Positions 5,540 to 15,226 of a DNA stretch of 53,197 nucleotides are shown here, piece by piece. The position numbers and the translations under genes were made by a program. The notes beneath the pieces were generated by a model that searched no databases, was not told the origin of the DNA, and saw nothing but the letters and a program-made list of their open reading frames with translations. Origin of the DNA: a virus. The DNA is taken from positions 1-53,197 of the IMG/VR virus record IMGVR_UViG_3300009826_000006; one strand, 5' to 3'. Every line of letters starts with the position of its first letter. Position 1 is the stretch's first letter.

Positions 5540-5998
5540 ATGAATCAAGTATACACGGGACTCGCACCAGTAATCAAGTCTTCGCTTCCCAATGTTCAAA
5601 AAAATAATAAAGCAGAGACAACATCTACACCCTCAACATTTGAGGAATATCAGGAGATACTTGAGCGCTCATGTCATGTCGTTAGATATCTTCAGGATAT
5701 TACGCGAGGCGGTATGCCTAAAAAATTGCAAGGCAATCAAGTGCCCTTAGCTATGGCTTTTCTTTCGCAAGCCCTGCATGATATACTGCTTCTCAGCCGT
5801 ACAGTAGAAGCCTTCGCAAAATTAACAAATCAATGGCCTACAATAATACCTCCGTCTCGTGAAGAACTTGACAATGATCTATGCGAGAAATATTGCACAC
5901 ATCCCGGTGCTGCCTGTGAAGGTCGAGGATGTTCTGAAGCTTATGAAGCCTTCCTGGATGATTTCCGTAATGGTAAATTTGAAAAATCGGAGGTGTAA
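5540..5998 (+). CDS. hypothetical protein (152 aa)
   Basis: ORF, coupled start/stop with neighbours. Confidence 0.6.
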   Translation: MNQVYTGLAPVIKSSLPNVQKNNKAETTSTPSTFEEYQEILERSCHVVRYLQDITRGGMPKKLQGNQVPLAMAFLSQALHDILLLSRTVEAFAKLTNQWPTIIPPSREELDNDLCEKYCTHPGAACEGRGCSEAYEAFLDDFRNGKFEKSEV

Positions 5999-7347: not shown

Positions 7348-7449
7348 GACTATCTAAAAGCTGTTTAAGGTGCTATACAAAATATTTTCCATGTCCTTCT
7401 AGAAAGATTTCAATATGGTTATGCTGGGAATGTATTGAGGAGTTATACG

Positions 7450-8727
7450 ATGAACACTGACATAATGGCCATCTACGACATATGTACAGATCTACAGCTA
7501 GCGGATGAGAGAGCTAAAAAAGAGCTTATACTTTATAACGCTCGTAATACACCTATTTGGCTAAAAACTATGCGTTATCTTTTTGATCCTATACTTAAGT
7601 CTGGTATGTCCGAAAAACGTATCAATCGTGTAGTTTGGCCTAGCGGTGTAGGATCTTCTGGTATAAATTCCCTTTCAGATATGTATGAATATCTTTGGGA
7701 AAATAATACTGGCAAAGATGATGATGTAGGCACCTTACAGCAATTTATATCAGAGCAAGAGCCTGAGTACGAAAGATTCTTATATACCCTTTTTTCTAAA
7801 CAACTACGTATGGGTGTAGATATAACTACTCTTAATCGTATATATGGGCGTGGTTTTATCTTACAGGTTAATTGTATGCTAGCATACCCTTTTAATGAAA
7901 AAGACCTTAAAGGCCAAGAGTTCACACTTACTCTTAAGCTAGATGGTATACGATGTATAGCTACCAAACAAGATGGCAAAGTAACATTGTATAGTAGGGG
8001 TTCTAAAATTTTTGAAGGTTTGTACGAGATTGAAAGGGCCTTACAGAATCATCCACAAGATAATTTTATATGGGATGGCGAGCTTTTAGCTTCAGACTGG
8101 GAGTATATGAAGACACCTTCCACAATAGCTTATAAAGCAGCTATACAGGCTGTAAAACCTAAAGGTCCTAAGAAAGGCGTAACCTTCTGGGTATTTGACG
8201 GTATGCCTTTAGATGTGTATAAAGATTTAGATACATCTAAATCCTATATAGAACGTCGTAAGGTATTAGATGAATTATGGATGGGTTACAGATCTGAAGT
8301 TTTGCAATTACTTCCAATACTGTATCAAGGCTCTGATATCTCAGCTATAAGCGCTCATACAAGAGCTATAAGCGCAGCAAAGCAAGAAGGTTTGATGTTA
8401 AACATTAACTTAGCTCCATACGCTTATACGCGCAGTAAATCGTTGTTAAAAATTAAGAAAATGAAAGATACGGATTTGGTGGTTATAGGTGTAGAAGAAG
8501 GTAAAGGGCGTTTAGAAGGTATGCTAGGTAATTTTGTTTGTGAGTACAAAGGCGGAGAAGTACGTGTGGGCACAGGTTTGAATGATTATCAACGTAAGCA
8601 CTTATATAGTCAGCGAGATGCTTTACATGGTAAAATAATCACTATAAATTATTTCGAGGAAACAAAGAATGCTAAAGGGCAGCCAAGCTTACGCTTTCCT
8701 ACGTTCCTCAGATTAAGGGAGGATTAA
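7450..8727 (+). CDS. ATP-dependent DNA ligase
   Basis: adenylation motif LKLDGIRC (KxDG), later EGLMLN and LLKIKK motifs; GAGGAG SD before ATG 7450. Confidence 0.8.
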   Translation: MNTDIMAIYDICTDLQLADERAKKELILYNARNTPIWLKTMRYLFDPILKSGMSEKRINRVVWPSGVGSSGINSLSDMYEYLWENNTGKDDDVGTLQQFISEQEPEYERFLYTLFSKQLRMGVDITTLNRIYGRGFILQVNCMLAYPFNEKDLKGQEFTLTLKLDGIRCIATKQDGKVTLYSRGSKIFEGLYEIERALQNHPQDNFIWDGELLASDWEYMKTPSTIAYKAAIQAVKPKGPKKGVTFWVFDGMPLDVYKDLDTSKSYIERRKVLDELWMGYRSEVLQLLPILYQGSDISAISAHTRAISAAKQEGLMLNINLAPYAYTRSKSLLKIKKMKDTDLVVIGVEEGKGRLEGMLGNFVCEYKGGEVRVGTGLNDYQRKHLYSQRDALHGKIITINYFEETKNAKGQPSLRFPTFLRLRED

Positions 8728-8728
8728 G

Positions 8729-9445
8729 ATGTCTAAATATGCAATTCTGTTATCTGGAGGTACAGACTCAGCAACTTTGTTAGGTAAACTACTTACTGAA
8801 GGATGTTGTAAAAGTGATATTTTGGCTATAGCATTTAACTATGGGCAAAAGCATGATATTGAGTTAAGGGCTTCAAGGCTTGTTGCAAAGTATTATGGTG
8901 TAGAGCATAAGACTTTGAACCTTTCTAATATTTATAAAGATGCCGAGAATCCTCTTCTGAAAGAAAGTAATAAGGCAATCCCTAAAGGCCCGTATGTTGC
9001 AAAACAGGTAGCAACTTATATACCTTTTCGTAATGGCTTATTTATATCCGCAGCTGCTGCATATGCAATGTCTATATGGCAAGATGAAAAAGATATTTTT
9101 ATATCTTTAGGAGCTCATACAGATGACAGCGTAGGAGATGTTTATGCTGATTGTTCTAAAACTTTTACACAATATATGGATAGAGCTATTATGCAGGGCA
9201 CTTATAATGTAGTAAAGCTTTTTTCACCATTTGCAGCCCGAAGATATACAAAAGCAAAAATAGTTAAAGCAGGTCTCAAAATTGGTGTACCTTATCATTT
9301 AACTTGGTCTTGCTATGAAGGTTCTACAGGACAAGGTGCTTGTGGCAAGTGTTCTACATGTATAGATCGTTTAAAAGCTTTTCATATCAATGGAGCACAA
9401 GATCCTATAAAGTATAAGGAGGTAACAGATGTATCAAATATCTAA
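8729..9445 (+). CDS. queC: 7-cyano-7-deazaguanine (preQ0) synthase QueC
   Basis: LLSGGTDS PP-loop; C-terminal Zn motif SCY...CGKCSTC; typical length. Confidence 0.85.
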   Translation: MSKYAILLSGGTDSATLLGKLLTEGCCKSDILAIAFNYGQKHDIELRASRLVAKYYGVEHKTLNLSNIYKDAENPLLKESNKAIPKGPYVAKQVATYIPFRNGLFISAAAAYAMSIWQDEKDIFISLGAHTDDSVGDVYADCSKTFTQYMDRAIMQGTYNVVKLFSPFAARRYTKAKIVKAGLKIGVPYHLTWSCYEGSTGQGACGKCSTCIDRLKAFHINGAQDPIKYKEVTDVSNI

Positions 9446-9797
9446 ACGTATGGAAATTGCAGGTAGCCATAAGTTAGATTTGGATTACCCTTCTCCATGT
9501 GGCGAGTTACATGGTCATAACTGGATTGTAATAGTTCATATTAGAGGGCCTAATTTAAATTACAATGGCATGTTAATTGATTTCGCGCATATTAAAAAAG
9601 AAATCCATGACTTGTTAGACCACAAAAATTTTAATGACGTTTTACCCAAACATGTACCTACCACGGCAGAAAGCTTAGCTTGTTGGATTTGCGAGAAAAT
9701 AAACTTACTTGACAAAGCCCCTGGTGCACACTGTTATAAGGTAGAAATATGGGAATCTGAAGGGAATAGGGCGGTGTATATAAATGAAAGTAAATGA
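9429..9797 (+). CDS. queD: 6-carboxy-5,6,7,8-tetrahydropterin synthase QueD
   Basis: CGELHGHNW motif, about 120 aa, between queC and queE. Confidence 0.8.
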   Translation: MYQISKRMEIAGSHKLDLDYPSPCGELHGHNWIVIVHIRGPNLNYNGMLIDFAHIKKEIHDLLDHKNFNDVLPKHVPTTAESLACWICEKINLLDKAPGAHCYKVEIWESEGNRAVYINESK

Positions 9798-10491
9798 AAT
9801 CTTTAAGTCTATAGAAGGCGAAGGTATGCATGCAGGTAAAGTTACCACCTTTATACGTTTACAAGGCTGTAATCTAAAATGCCTTTATTGCGACACTCAA
9901 CATGCAGGCGATTCTGAAGGCGGTACGCAAATGTCTAGACCTACAATTATGTCACGTGCCATTTGTAACTTTTCAAATCACGTATCTATCACAGGAGGGG
10001 AACCTCTATTACACGAAGAATTACCTAAGCTCGTAGTACGTCTTCTCCGTGAATACAGAACTGTGCATATAGAGACAAATGGTAGTATATCTATACCTGA
10101 GTTTTTTAAAAAGGTTCAAGAGCATGCTGCCCGTACAGTAGCTATACTACTATTAAAAAAATTTCTTACCTTTTCTATAGATTATAAACTACCTAGTTCA
10201 GGACATGAGATGCAGATGTTAGCTGAAAATTTTGAATATGCAGCAGCTAACAGTGATACCTGTTCTGTAAAATTTATAGCAGGTACGCAAGAAGACTTAT
10301 GGCAAATTTGCGATGTCATAAGAGAGTATAAACTTGAAAAATGTTTTGTAGGACCAGCATTCCAACAACTTGATCCTCAAGAGATAGTTAATTGGCTTGT
10401 AAATTTGCAGGACAAGGATGTGCAGGGCGCTTTACGCTTACAGTTGCAACTGCACAAAATTATCTGGGATCCAGAAAAGCGAGGTGTGTAG
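9784..10491 (+). CDS. queE: 7-carboxy-7-deazaguanine synthase QueE (radical SAM)
   Basis: FIRLQGCNLKCLYCDT cluster motif, ITGGEPL. Confidence 0.8.
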   Translation: MKVNEIFKSIEGEGMHAGKVTTFIRLQGCNLKCLYCDTQHAGDSEGGTQMSRPTIMSRAICNFSNHVSITGGEPLLHEELPKLVVRLLREYRTVHIETNGSISIPEFFKKVQEHAARTVAILLLKKFLTFSIDYKLPSSGHEMQMLAENFEYAAANSDTCSVKFIAGTQEDLWQICDVIREYKLEKCFVGPAFQQLDPQEIVNWLVNLQDKDVQGALRLQLQLHKIIWDPEKRGV

Positions 10492-11057
10492 TGGATATCA
10501 ACAGAGCTGAAATAGCAATAGCTAATATTATAGAAACATTTGGCGGAGACTTACAATCTGAAGGTATGCGGGATACACCTAAGCGTGCAGCTAAAATGTT
10601 TGCTGAGCTCCTTGAGGGTATGCAGTACACTAATGAGCAAATAGCAGAAAAGTGTAGCAAGTGTTTTGAGCACGTTAGCCATAACGATCTTGTCATTGTG
10701 CAAGACATACCTATTTTCAGTCTTTGCGAACATCATCTGGCTCTCATGTATAATATGAAAGTGCATGTAGCTTATGTACCTTGCGGGCGTGTAATTGGTC
10801 TTTCAAAAATAGCACGCATTGCACAACTTGTAAGTAAGCGCTTTCAGCTTCAAGAGCGTATAGGGCAGGATATCCTGGAGATTCTAGCATATGTATTATG
10901 TACTAATGACATTATGGTCATCGTAGAGGGAGAACATTCCTGCATGACTGCAAGAGGTGTCAAGGTTGCTGGAGCACGTACTAAGACATCAGCTATAAAT
11001 GGACGATTCAAAAAAGTGCTTGCGTTACGTCAAGAAGCATTGGCACTAATTAAATAA
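10491..11057 (+). CDS. folE: GTP cyclohydrolase I FolE; start moved to GTG 10491
   Basis: GMRDTPKRAAKMF, SLCEHHL, EGEHSCM motifs; GAGGTG SD; 188 aa fits the family; the ORF-track N-extension overlaps queE. Confidence 0.85.
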   Translation: MDINRAEIAIANIIETFGGDLQSEGMRDTPKRAAKMFAELLEGMQYTNEQIAEKCSKCFEHVSHNDLVIVQDIPIFSLCEHHLALMYNMKVHVAYVPCGRVIGLSKIARIAQLVSKRFQLQERIGQDILEILAYVLCTNDIMVIVEGEHSCMTARGVKVAGARTKTSAINGRFKKVLALRQEALALIK

Positions 11058-12135: not shown

Positions 12136-12349
12136 GCATATGCGCAGATTCTTGAAGTTTGCAGGAGTCGCCGTTGTTGTTATGTTGGTTTTGATTGTCG
12201 TAGTTATTGTAGGCAATGAACTAACAAGCCTAACCGAACCAAGAAGACAGCCTTTGCAAATCGAAATACAGGAAACAGAAAGCCCGTTTAATGTTCGTGA
12301 TATGCAGGATGAAACAAGAGACAGGATTAACAATAGGCTTAATGACTAA
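12125..12349 (+). CDS. small single-pass membrane protein (74 aa)
   Basis: hydrophobic stretch AGVAVVVMLVLIVVVIV. Confidence 0.5.
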   Translation: MMNRHMRRFLKFAGVAVVVMLVLIVVVIVGNELTSLTEPRRQPLQIEIQETESPFNVRDMQDETRDRINNRLND

Positions 12350-12366
12350 CTCAGTTATATAGTCGT

Positions 12367-12500
12367 AACGTGGTGGCGGAATGGGTAGACGCGCGGTGGA
12401 GAAGGCCTGTGGTGAGAGGGTTAGTTAGGACGGTAGTCCCAGACCTAATGATTTGTGGTAGGTGTTCAGGCATGTAGGGTTCAAATCCCTACCCACGTTA
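12367..12500 (+). tRNA. atypical oversized tRNA-like gene (134 nt) with the same 5' 22-mer as 815-836
   Basis: acceptor AACGTGG/CCACGTT; TG; D arm GCGG-AATGGGTAGA-CGC; T arm GTAGGG-TTCAAAT-CCCTAC; 80 nt between D and T arms; no CCA. Confidence 0.5.
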
Positions 12501-12529
12501 TTAAAAAAAAAAATAGGGGATGCTGCTGG

Positions 12530-15226
12530 GTGATTTATTCAAGGTTTATTACTTTCGAATGCAAGCATAATGACGGGCAGCTTTACGCTTTGTGCCCTTT
12601 ACATGTAGAAAAGACCCCGTCATTCACAGTTAATGAGGAGACAGAAGAATGGTATTGTTTTGGTTGTGCAGAGGGTGGAGGTCCTAAAGAATTTGTAGCT
12701 AAACTTCTAGATGTTGATATTACTATAGCTAAGACTGCGATTTCTACTTATGAAAAATCTGGTAATTGGATTTTGCCGGAGGATGATCGCATTGATAAGT
12801 TGCATGTAAATCTTATTACAAGACCTTCTGAAATAGCCATACTACACAAGTATGGTATAACTAGAGAAGCTATCGAAAAATATAGGTTAGGCTGGGAAGA
12901 TACTAGAATTATTTTCCCTATTTTTTCTCGTACTGGTTACTGCGTTAACCTAAGAAAATATCTCCCACCTCACAGGCGTGAAGATGCTTTGCGTAAGGTT
13001 ATACATGAAAGAGGTTTAGGTAAAGGAAGTCCAAGATTTTATCCTTATGAAGCCTTTGATGAGGATACTATTTTTATAGTCGAAGGTGAGAAAGACTGCA
13101 TTGCTGCTAGGGCTCAAGGCATCAATGCAGTTACAGGTACGGGAGGTGCAACTTTACCTGTACATGAAGCTTTAATGTTTAAGGACAAACATGTTATCCT
13201 AATGGTTGATACTGATAAAACAGGTAATAAATTGGCAAGAGATTACTATCAATTACTGCAGCAAGTTGCATCTTCTATAAAACGTGTAGTACTTCCTACA
13301 AAAGATTTTGTAGAGTATTTTGAAAATTGCTCAGAGTCTGAAGAGGATATGGATGTAATGAAATTCCTTGAAGCTTCTGTGCAACAAGCTGCTGATGAAG
13401 TTGAAGCTCAGGAAGCTACACTTGCATCAGCTGAAACAGTAGAAAACTTAGATACTTGGGTTATTTTAAAAAATATGACTATTGTAGGTACGGAAGCTAA
13501 AATTTATACAGTACCTACTAAACTAGAATGCGTATGTATTTCATCTAAATGCGATAAATTCTGCCCTTTGGCATCGACGTCTTTAACTGGTAAAGGACCT
13601 ATTATAGATGTACCATCTAGGCATGTTGTACATTTCCTAGACTCTAACGATGGTATACAAGATAAGTTTGTACAAGAAAAATTTCGTTGTCAAAAAGTAA
13701 AAGCTATACCTACAGAATATGTCAATGTACAAAAAATAATCTTCCAAGAGTCAGCCTCTTTTGTAGATGGTCTAGAAGATGCAACATTTGAACACCGTTA
13801 TGGAATGTACACATATGTGGACCATAGACTAAGCGCTACTATGAAATATGATTTAGTAGCTTGCAGAGTAACGGATCCTCGTACACAGGTAGTATATTAT
13901 GTTATTCGAGACGCTGAAAAGATTGATATGCATATACCATCTATGTATTTGGAAAGCGTAGATAAGTTCCGTCTCGTGGCGCAAATTTCTAACAGTGCTA
14001 TAGAACTTTTAGAACATTATTATAAAGAGTGGTTACCAACTTTAGCTATAGAAGGCCGATTAGATTTGTTTGGAGCTATGCTTTTAACATATTGCTCAGT
14101 AACAGAAATACCTTGGCAAGGTGGAATTATAAAAGGGTGGTTAGATACAATATGCGTTGGAGATACAAGAACGGGGAAATCTCAGATGGCACAACGCTTT
14201 GTTAAATCTATAGGAATGGGGAGTTACATCAATGGAGAAAACGCGCGTAGAACAGGTGTTATTGGAGGTCTCCAACAATTTGGAGGTTCTTGGGTTATCA
14301 CTTGGGGAGCTATACCACTCAATGACAGAGGCCTTCTTGTCATTGATGAAGCTAGTGGACTCGATATTGACGACATTAAAGACTTATCTTCAACGCGCAG
14401 TTCTGGAGCTGTTACACTTCATAAAATTGTTAAAGGAGAAGCAAGAGCTCGTACCAGGTTATTCTGGTTATCCAACCCCCGTTCAGGCTGTAACATTCAT
14501 GAATTCTACTGGCGTGGCTATGGAGCATTTCAAGAATTCATACCTGCAGTGGAAGACCAGGCAAGATTCGACCTCGTATTATCGGCGGCGCGAGAGGATA
14601 TAGATACTCCTAAAGGTATTGACCATTATCATGAACCTGAGCTTAACAACTGGCGAGATTTAGTTGCAACTGCTTGGTCTTTAACTCTTGAAGATATTAT
14701 TTACGATGATGTGTTTCGCGCTAGAATAAGAGAGTCCTCTAAAGCTCTCAATGAAGAAATGGGCGGTGGACCTCTTATTGTAGGGGTTGCTGTACATGAG
14801 AAACTTCTAAGGCTTTCCTGCGCTTTTGCAGTGCTTTCTGGAGATGTATATGATGGTAAGCTAAAACTTAAAGAGAGGCATCTAGAGTATTCTGTAGAGT
14901 TTCTTAAGTATACTCTCTTAAAGGAAACAATGTCTTACGGTGAATACGTTAAAGGCTTGAAAAAGGCTAGAGAAGCACGTATTAAGAATATAGAATTTAT
15001 ACGCGGTTTGTTAGTATTACATCCAGCAATAAAAGCTGTATTAATTGCAAAGACTTTCCGAGGACATCAGTTCTCTGAAATATTAGGTTTAGATAAAAAT
15101 GAATCTGCAAAGATACTCTCCGACCTTATTAAGCGAGGTCTTGTATCTGTACAGTCTCATGCTACTTATAAACCTGAAAGTGTTCTAACAGATGTAGCAA
15201 GACAATTCGAAATAGGAGGAGATTAG
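12530..15226 (+). CDS. primase-helicase fusion: CHC2 zinc finger + Toprim (DnaG-type) + MCM-like AAA+ ATPase; start moved to GTG 12530
   Basis: CPLHVEKTPSF...CFGC; IFIVEGEKDCIAA and MVDTDKTGNK (Toprim); GDTRTGKSQ, GAIPLNDRGLLVIDEASG, ARTRLFWLSNP, ARFDLVL align with MCM Walker A/B, sensor and Arg-finger motifs; AGGGGA SD. Confidence 0.75.
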   Translation: MIYSRFITFECKHNDGQLYALCPLHVEKTPSFTVNEETEEWYCFGCAEGGGPKEFVAKLLDVDITIAKTAISTYEKSGNWILPEDDRIDKLHVNLITRPSEIAILHKYGITREAIEKYRLGWEDTRIIFPIFSRTGYCVNLRKYLPPHRREDALRKVIHERGLGKGSPRFYPYEAFDEDTIFIVEGEKDCIAARAQGINAVTGTGGATLPVHEALMFKDKHVILMVDTDKTGNKLARDYYQLLQQVASSIKRVVLPTKDFVEYFENCSESEEDMDVMKFLEASVQQAADEVEAQEATLASAETVENLDTWVILKNMTIVGTEAKIYTVPTKLECVCISSKCDKFCPLASTSLTGKGPIIDVPSRHVVHFLDSNDGIQDKFVQEKFRCQKVKAIPTEYVNVQKIIFQESASFVDGLEDATFEHRYGMYTYVDHRLSATMKYDLVACRVTDPRTQVVYYVIRDAEKIDMHIPSMYLESVDKFRLVAQISNSAIELLEHYYKEWLPTLAIEGRLDLFGAMLLTYCSVTEIPWQGGIIKGWLDTICVGDTRTGKSQMAQRFVKSIGMGSYINGENARRTGVIGGLQQFGGSWVITWGAIPLNDRGLLVIDEASGLDIDDIKDLSSTRSSGAVTLHKIVKGEARARTRLFWLSNPRSGCNIHEFYWRGYGAFQEFIPAVEDQARFDLVLSAAREDIDTPKGIDHYHEPELNNWRDLVATAWSLTLEDIIYDDVFRARIRESSKALNEEMGGGPLIVGVAVHEKLLRLSCAFAVLSGDVYDGKLKLKERHLEYSVEFLKYTLLKETMSYGEYVKGLKKAREARIKNIEFIRGLLVLHPAIKAVLIAKTFRGHQFSEILGLDKNESAKILSDLIKRGLVSVQSHATYKPESVLTDVARQFEIGGD

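Follow-up and report, generated by a model that had tools for sequence, protein, structure and literature searches.

What is a gene that has the acceptor stem, the D arm and the T arm of a tRNA, extends over 134 nucleotides (nt) and has no anticodon arm? Such an element, here called e2, lies at 12367-12500 on the + strand of the IMG/VR virus record IMGVR_UViG_3300009826_000006, of which positions 1 to 53,197 were analysed (53,197 nt; hereafter the window), and a paralogous copy of 109 nt, e1, lies at 810-918 on the same strand. A preliminary description, made from the letters of the window, had listed the parts of e2, had argued for function rather than decay and had not recognised it as a described phage RNA class. 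Our analysis shows that e2 has more than 50 distinct oversized homologues (66-215 nt), found by scans with a 15-mer of the D arm and by follow-up searches, which share the plan acceptor(7)-UG-GCGGAAUGGGUAGACGC-variable insert-YAUG-T arm-acceptor(7) and have no anticodon arm. The e2-type RNAs appear to be new as an anticodon-less phage family, and belong within tRNA-derived non-coding RNA.

To collect the family we used the exact D-arm 15-mer GCGGAATGGGTAGAC as seed, and the conservation of the D loop is consequently in part a product of the construction. A scan of IMG/VR with a 22-mer common to e1 and e2 returned five identical canonical tRNA-Leu(CAG) genes (L001-L005) and one oversized element (L006), which begins 2 nt after a tRNA-Gln. 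The 15-mer scan of the same database gave 95 loci, which were sorted into chance matches in coding DNA, canonical tRNA-Leu genes of 81-85 nt and oversized elements, of which about 32 are distinct and measure 66-181 nt. For the JGI metagenomes and the bacterial genomes a gapped pattern that excludes normal tRNAs was used; it detected 24 loci in the metagenomes, 18 of which were new, and copies in only three bacterial genomes, two of them Lactobacillaceae with the element inside tRNA clusters. A lineage-specific scan of metagenomes (AAYRKGG plus the D arm) had no matches. Additionally, BLAST against cultured phages uncovered members in the Lactobacillus plantarum phages 8014-B2, Lpa804, phiJL-1, Iacchus, Dionysus, Sha1, P1 and P2. 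The GenBank records of these eight phages have no annotated feature under the match, and the annotation tables of seven of them have none over the element. The full-text literature that we searched, of which coverage was incomplete so that an earlier description may exist elsewhere, held no description of such a family. Together with the lack of a model in Rfam 15 that matches e2, this agrees with the preliminary description, and the family is apparently undescribed as a phage RNA class.

The core structure was examined by covariation in 42 distinct cores of the subgroup with a T stem of 6 base pairs (bp), after removal of the inserts and counting the pairs of the top half. Standard pairs occupy 98.5% of the cells, compared with 73.5% in shuffled alignments, and in 14 of the 16 pairs both partners change. 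Covariation scored 0.709, as against 0.197 in shuffles (none of 500 reached the observed value) and 0.07-0.22 when the partners were slid. In the acceptor stem both partners change in every one of the seven pairs, with 98.0% of the cells paired. Five of the six T-stem pairs covary, the extra sixth pair included (G-C in 37, A-U in 2 and G-U in 2 of the 42 cores), as do two of the three D-stem pairs, AUG/CAU replacing GCG/CGC in phages Iacchus and Dionysus; the D loop also varies among L. plantarum phages (AAUAGGUAGAC, AAUAGUAGAC). Because the sixth T-stem pair covaries, the stack of 7+6 = 13 bp formed by the acceptor and T stems is real and conserved in this subgroup, in agreement with the earlier proposal that the 6-bp T stem is a kept part of the layout. 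Most members of the family have the lengthened T arm of 6 bp. A second subgroup has the normal 7+5 arrangement and includes the members with acceptor AGUCAGG as well as L028, L077, L007 and L093. A conserved 7+6 acceptor/T stack is a configuration that we did not find described in the literature searched.

All the sequence features that had been listed for e2, namely the acceptor, the UG, a D arm identical to that of e1, the 6-bp T arm, a discriminator A and the lack of CCA, are present at their coordinates. The 5' acceptor strand AACGTGG (12367-12373; this and the following features are on the + strand) forms seven of seven pairs with 12493-12499, and is followed by U8-G9 (UG, 12374-12375) and by a D arm of the tRNA-Leu type, GCGGAATGGGTAGACGC (12376-12392), with a 3-bp stem (GCG/CGC) and an 11-nt loop that contains GGG. 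A single-stranded linker of 12 nt (12393-12404) leads to the hairpin of the variable region (12405-12471), whose closing helix, GCCTG at 12405-12409 with CAGGC at 12467-12471, appears in the sequence and in the minimum free energy fold; the apical hairpin GGAC-GGTA-GTCC (12428-12439), also noted earlier, is likewise present in the sequence of the insert. An AU spacer and the T arm GTAGGG-TTCAAAT-CCCTAC come next (12472-12492, the T arm being 12474-12492), the YAUG motif before the T stem being conserved in the family, and the element ends with the 3' acceptor strand CCACGTT and the discriminator A12500 (12493-12500), with no CCA encoded. The distance between the D and T arms is 81 nt, counting G12393. 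The unconstrained minimum free energy fold recovers the acceptor, D and T helices, and the nucleotides of the tRNA elbow are in place, GGG in the D loop (G18 G19) and TTCAAAT in the T loop (T54 Psi55 C56), in columns that are invariant in the 42-core alignment. Both e2 and e1 parse with all the features of the family and align without gaps to the 40 other cores. A pseudoknot between the linker and the hairpin loop is plausible by eye in L006 and L048, and is absent in e1 and e2.

The copy e1 has the same D arm as e2, and its acceptor (AATAGGG/CCCTATT), T stem (GTGAGG/CCTCAT) and insert are different. The two elements have in common an exact 22-mer (815-836 and 12372-12393), which runs from the last acceptor nucleotides through the complete D arm, and the T loop GGTTCAAATCC; the matches expected by chance in shuffles of the window are 0.00 for the 22-mer and 0.03 for the T loop. 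Directly upstream of e1 there is an A-rich stretch, preceded by a long inverted repeat (AGTAAGCGCTTAGC ... GCTAAGCGCTTAC) around a run of 11 C at 722-782.

The identity of e2 with a known RNA family was rejected, since nothing relevant was returned by Rfam or ARAGORN. The ARAGORN search for tRNA and tmRNA (transfer-messenger RNA) found no gene in the window, and Rfam 15 had no match at the gathering score over the whole window. At E values up to 10 on positions 12250-12620, Rfam gave noise, led by a mascRNA match of 18 bits that runs through the T arm, and no tRNA model matched. To obtain a call for e1 and e2 from ARAGORN, introns had to be permitted and the threshold reduced, and the isotypes were then arbitrary; with the -i option at default stringency it calls neither. 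In the folds of e2 there is no hairpin of the anticodon type, in which a 5-bp stem would begin one nt past the D stem and a 7-nt loop would include U33. The view that there is no canonical anticodon arm is thus borne out by ARAGORN, Rfam and the folds, and no such arm is common to the homologues. For tmRNA, ARAGORN was negative on the window and on the family, and the pair 3-70 is C-G in e2 and G-U in one of the 42 cores. The YrlA model (RF02553) does not match e2, its sole match being a 26-bit sub-threshold one beside L037, and no Ro/Rsr-like domain was found among the 20 window proteins scanned against Pfam. No tRNA-Sec match was given by Rfam for e2, in which the stack is 7+6 and not 8+5, the D stem has 3 bp and no anticodon is present. 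As for a canonical decoding tRNA, e2 has the acceptor and the D and T arms and does not have the anticodon arm. In summary of these comparisons, e2 fails a defining feature of tmRNA, YrlA, tRNA-Sec and the canonical decoding tRNA.

Where do these elements come from? Every typed canonical tRNA that carries the D-arm 15-mer is a tRNA-Leu (L001-L005 with CAG; L034, L081, L027, L045 and L060). In canonical tRNA-Leu the helix of the variable arm is followed by 2 nt and then by the T stem, which is the position of the helix in the family: many homologues form one, up to 10 bp long, that ends 2-3 nt short of the T stem, as the preliminary description had proposed from the two copies in the window. 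Small members have intermediate features, since L019 and L092 display a hairpin of 5 bp and 7 nt at the position of the anticodon arm and then the variable-arm helix, 2 nt and the T stem, and the smallest members are called as tRNAs (L019 and L043 by ARAGORN, L009 by the Rfam tRNA model with 38.5 bits). Because of the D arm shared with tRNA-Leu, the matching position of the helix and these intermediate members, the family most likely descends from class II tRNA-Leu, and e2 is best seen as a class II tRNA-Leu derivative and not as an architecture without relatives. The linker at 12393-12404 is then probably a vestigial anticodon arm. The alternative 18-nt hairpin that had been drawn at this place is weak, and its position fits such a vestige. 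The segment 12405-12471 is most likely an expanded (hypertrophied) variable arm, judging from the size series of the family rather than from a demonstrated homology.

The length of the insert goes from 0 to about 165 nt across the family, with nearly none in P1/P2 and L031 and about 165 nt in 8014-B2 and Lpa804. In P1 and P2 (L105/L106, about 340-430) we observed a minimal member of about 62 nt, with the usual acceptor and T arm of the L. plantarum phages, a D arm GCC-GTTAATTAGTTT-GGC and no insert. The inserts have no common motif except the 3' YAUG (YATG in the DNA) and no Shine-Dalgarno-like enrichment; the ATG of this motif was ruled out as a start codon for e2, where ATG and TAG follow in immediate succession. 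The 5' linker from the D stem to the helix before the T stem measures 0-24 nt in the homologues, with no conserved sequence. The rule of exactly 12 nt after the D stem therefore holds for e1 and e2 by chance, and of the layout that homologues were expected to keep, they retain the helix and the 6-bp T stem and not the linker of 12 nt. Taken together, the inserts are modestly more structured than their dinucleotide shuffles (the mean z is -0.75, with p = 3e-5).

Comparison of related and unrelated phages indicates different histories for the two parts of the element. The acceptor GUGCUUG/CAAGCAC, the T arm and the discriminator are identical across unrelated L. plantarum phages (Tybeckvirinae, Herelleviridae, Coetzeevirus and the unclassified Sha1), and the inserts of these same phages are unrelated, with 0, 32, 57, 66 and about 165 nt. 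The unrelated phages 8014-B2 and Lpa804 have the whole 215-nt element in common, and one of the differences between their copies is a compensatory change of A-U to G-C in the outer helix of the insert. Lpa804 and Iacchus, which are related and carry the element at the same locus with identical flanks, differ only in the D arm and the insert, a pattern that looks like the swap of an internal cassette. The two copies in L043 have the same acceptor and unlike inserts. These comparisons of sequence point to a core that is conserved or transferred as a unit and a middle part that turns over fast. Many copies lie in or beside phage tRNA clusters, such as that of L086, which ends 7 nt before a tRNA-Trp.

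Because it keeps the conserved top half of a tRNA without an anticodon arm, the e2 RNA cannot decode. The explanation that we prefer, and hold with moderate confidence, is that e2 is a non-decoding mimic derived from tRNA-Leu, which would be matured in the manner of a tRNA and would act through its tRNA-like core. Transcription would probably be by read-through from the upstream genes of the + strand, because no promoter-like site lies upstream of e2 and other copies are found within tRNA clusters; neither a promoter nor a terminator of its own was found for e2. RNase P would then cut between 12366 and 12367 and RNase Z after A12500, and CCA would be added, a maturation expected because the parts that these enzymes recognise, namely the acceptor/T minihelix and the elbow, are conserved, no CCA is encoded and copies lie among tRNAs. 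The product would fold into an L-shaped top half unable to read a codon, the structure being shown by covariation and the missing anticodon arm by the detectors and by eye. Finally, and speculatively, the conserved top half could mimic tRNA bodies, or compete with them, for the host factors that recognise them. An all-versus-all BLAST of the open reading frames within 5 kilobases of 32 elements revealed no cluster present in more than three loci, and since no neighbouring protein is conserved the partner is probably a host factor. Action on such a factor through the tRNA body is favoured because the core is kept even without an insert and no phage protein partner is linked to it.

As for the role itself, our tentative preference, drawn by analogy, is that the RNA may serve as a decoy for antiphage nucleases or toxins that target tRNAs, with the variable arm as a fast-evolving interface. 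Septu and the retron-Eco7 PtuAB cleave the class II variable arm of tRNA-Tyr, the tRNA-Tyr of phage T5 escapes through a distinct variable loop, and the host tRNA is protected in part when phage tRNA-Tyr is overexpressed (PMC13096335). A decoy made of the tRNA body and a rapidly changing variable arm, with no need for an anticodon, would match what the family shows. The current view of phage tRNA genes is in part that they counter tRNA-cleaving immunity, and a family that has the tRNA body and no anticodon cannot replenish decoding, which points to a different use of tRNA mimicry by phages. With considerable doubt we extend the analogy to a widespread class of phage anti-defence RNAs, in which anticodon-less class II tRNA decoys would bind nucleases similar to PtuAB/Septu or toxins that modify the acceptor, and the hypervariable, cassette-like arm would be where the arms race takes place; if true, such a class could also suggest a role for stable RNAs of tRNA clusters such as T4 RNAC. 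These ideas are directly testable, since unannotated members are carried by phiJL-1, Sha1, 8014-B2, P1/P2 and Iacchus, which are Lactobacillus phages in culture and amenable to genetics.

Besides the choice of seed, several observations weigh against a functional mimic acting on a host factor. The fold energy of e2 is no better than that of shuffles (z = -0.38), and because this energy is ordinary the structural support for e2 is the comparison of homologues and not thermodynamics; the insert of e2 is itself not more structured than shuffles (z = -0.18). The copies e1 and e2 have unlike acceptor and T stems in one phage, which disfavours a single sequence-specific host partner. The discriminator varies across the family (A, U or C, never G, with A73 in about half and no member encoding CCA), so uniform recognition by leucyl-tRNA synthetase (LeuRS) is unlikely. 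Three loci (L102-L104) whose primase is 60-65% identical to that of the window have no tRNA-like gene in the same gap, and because relatives with primase identities of 57-65% do without the element at this site e2 is dispensable. The decoy role is an analogy, and the known nucleases of the variable arm target tRNA-Tyr in Escherichia coli, not tRNA-Leu in the host of this phage.

In the best of the other explanations, a doubtful but real possibility, the element is a natural tRNA scaffold whose core would give processing and stability only. The active part would be the variable hairpin, different from phage to phage, whether as an antisense RNA, an aptamer or a protein sponge. A conserved core with a hypervariable and exchangeable insert is what such a scaffold would look like, several copies with different inserts occur in some phages (e1/e2, and the two in L043), the insert population is more structured than shuffles, and the long insert common to 8014-B2 and Lpa804 carries one compensatory change. 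However, P1/P2 and L031 keep a perfect core with nearly no insert, the inserts lack a common motif or Shine-Dalgarno-like enrichment, and none matched an Rfam family in the loci scanned. The complementarity of the e1 and e2 inserts to the window is limited to 10-11-mers, where about two such 11-mer matches are estimated by chance; an antisense target of these inserts within the window was rejected, the longest exact matches being 11-mers judged to be at chance level.

It is unlikely that the element is processing punctuation, that is, a tRNA-like site for RNase P and RNase Z that would separate the upstream mRNA from the primase mRNA or set their stability. tRNA-like cleavage signals of this kind occur in mitochondrial transcripts and at the 3' end of MALAT1. 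The location of e2 would be suitable, since it sits in a 180-nt gap between genes of the same strand, from the stop codon at 12349 to the likely primase start at 12530, with no promoter-like site of its own, and the part conserved in the family is only the RNase P/Z recognition module, the insert being unconstrained. Against this, many members lie within ordinary tRNA arrays, where a further cleavage signal adds nothing, the strict identity of acceptor and T-arm sequences in unrelated L. plantarum phages exceeds what a cleavage signal needs, and relatives of this phage do without the element.

We consider quite improbable a chargeable tRNA working outside the ribosome, which would keep leucine identity and either tie up LeuRS or pass leucine on outside translation, and whose 13-bp stack would avoid EF-Tu as in tRNA-Sec. 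Recognition by the LeuRS of E. coli is independent of the anticodon, e2 has A73 together with a tRNA-Leu D arm, A73 is present in about half of the family and the 7+6 stack is conserved; nevertheless, the remaining members, e1 included, have U or C as discriminator, and no aminoacyl-transferase gene is linked to the element.

The two remaining explanations are both very improbable. An intron-containing or otherwise unusual decoding tRNA, functional once the insert is removed, is suggested by the calls that ARAGORN can be forced to make on most members with introns allowed and a lowered threshold, and by a gene in the same loci (L083 8147-8256) that keeps an anticodon stem around a large loop; this reading was rejected, since e1 and e2 are not called at default stringency even if introns are permitted, and the relaxed calls put the supposed intron immediately behind the D arm (position 30-41) and not at 37/38 and assign unrelated isotypes to the homologues (among them Ile, Ser, Val, Gly, Pyl and stop). 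Moreover, no anticodon stem-loop or variable arm is conserved upstream of the T arm, the insertless members have no anticodon at all, and inserts of such length are far too small for group I self-splicing. A decaying tRNA-Leu pseudogene without function would account for the lost anticodon arm, the variable discriminator, the dispensability in relatives and copies that look damaged, such as the acceptor of L067, but decay would not keep 98.5% of the cells paired with compensatory changes at 14 of 16 pairs in 42 diverse cores, nor a core identical in unrelated phages of one host; with more than 50 homologues from unrelated phages, the earlier argument for function rather than decay is strengthened.

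The non-decoding mimic can also be compared with known systems. By descent, as judged from the sequences, its closest relatives are the class II tRNA-Leu genes, with which the family shares the 7-bp acceptor, U8, a D arm identical to that of phage tRNA-Leu genes (GGCGGAAUGGGUAGACGC), the T loop UUCAAAU, a helix plus 2 nt before the T stem like the long variable arm, and the location in tRNA clusters. Unlike those genes, the family has no anticodon arm, a variable region of up to about 165 nt, an extra sixth T pair and a discriminator that is not fixed as A, and it is missed by the detectors. The RNAs RNAC and RNAD of phage T4 ('species 1 and 2') are likewise small stable RNAs, of 119-139 nt, encoded beside phage tRNA genes, and RNAC has a T arm (CCGGG-UUCGAAU-CCCGG) followed by an acceptor-like strand at its end; their function is still unknown (PMC3014915). 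Compared by inspection, they have no sequence similarity to the family, no D arm of the Leu type and imperfect acceptor pairing, so they were set aside as homologues and stand as a conceptual parallel only.

The tRNA-like domain of tmRNA also combines an acceptor and a T arm with a large insertion between its 5' and 3' halves in a non-decoding mimic, but tmRNA lacks a D stem and has the G3-U70 alanine identity, pseudoknots and a reading frame for the tag, for which some members of the family have no room. YrlA is a non-coding RNA of bacteria and phages with a tRNA-like module (T arm, D arm and acceptor) that is a substrate of tRNA enzymes (PMC4201824); it differs in its permuted topology, with the ends of the RNA in the Ro-binding stem and a capped acceptor. 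A non-canonical acceptor/T branch is also found in tRNA-Sec and the allo-tRNAs (8/5, 8/4, 9/3), together with a long variable arm and, in bacterial tRNA-Sec, a 13-bp stack, and some allo-tRNAs occur in phage tRNA clusters (PMC5389517). The family departs from them in having 7+6 and not 8+5, a Leu-type D stem of 3 bp and not of 6 bp, and no anticodon arm, while allo-tRNAs decode. In engineered tRNA scaffolds for recombinant RNA the insert reportedly replaces the anticodon region. These scaffolds and the tRNA-Other of Bacillus cereus resemble the family in that a tRNA body gives processing and stability to an RNA outside ordinary decoding; the scaffold is artificial, tRNA-Other is chromosomal and has an anticodon arm, and neither has a hypervariable natural insert. 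tRNA-Other, a pseudo-tRNA small RNA, is mentioned in PMC5389517.

In the window, the gene downstream of e2 codes for a primase-helicase with a CHC2 zinc ribbon, Toprim and MCM-type P-loop domains. The public call of this primase (P0001, 923 amino acids) starts at GTG 12455, inside the 3' half of e2. The relatives of 900-913 amino acids and the position of the zinc ribbon suggest that GTG 12530, with AGGGGA about 9 nt upstream, is the likelier start. For annotation this means that tRNA finders miss these genes and that gene callers run reading frames into them, as in the primase call at 12455. In the gap between the DUF669 and primase genes, where the window has e2, two of the primase-related phages have long near-perfect inverted repeats (L102, about 2760-2870; L104, about 2870-2985), which may be an origin or another structured element.

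Close relatives of this phage were found neither by megablast against INPHARED nor by an IMG/VR scan seeded with primase peptides, and tblastn with the DNA polymerase gave identities of 33% or less, so that it has no close cultured relative. Upstream of e2, positions 8729-11057 on the + strand, together with 7435-8727, code in a row for QueC, QueD (PTPS), a radical-SAM QueE-like protein and GTP cyclohydrolase I, and an ATP-dependent DNA ligase lies just upstream of this row. The presence of a preQ0 / 7-deazaguanine pathway in the window suggests that the phage DNA is modified.

Other RNAs were observed near members of the family. The tRNA cluster of 8014-B2 that holds the 215-nt element also has, about 480 nt upstream of it, a ROOL RNA (139 bits; L100 1267-1839, corresponding to JX486088 6358-6930), which overlaps a coding sequence annotated as a hypothetical protein. 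In phiJL-1, a truncated-looking tRNA match of 60 nt (42 bits; L101 2316-2375), unannotated, is located about 45 nt upstream of the element, near the right end of the genome. A contig with a family member (L012) also carries a twister-sister ribozyme match on the minus strand at 2892-2961, with 44.7 bits, above the gathering score. In addition, we detected other oversized tRNA-like genes, of 100-144 nt and with non-Leu or variant D arms, at L083 (minus strand, 5755-5857 and 8147-8256), L081/L094 (5040-5183) and L027/L087 (1850-1949). In the second of those in L083 the anticodon stem (CCGGT/ACCGG) is intact and encloses a loop of 46 nt, and the insertion-bearing tRNA-like genes of phages may be a broader group than the Leu-type family.

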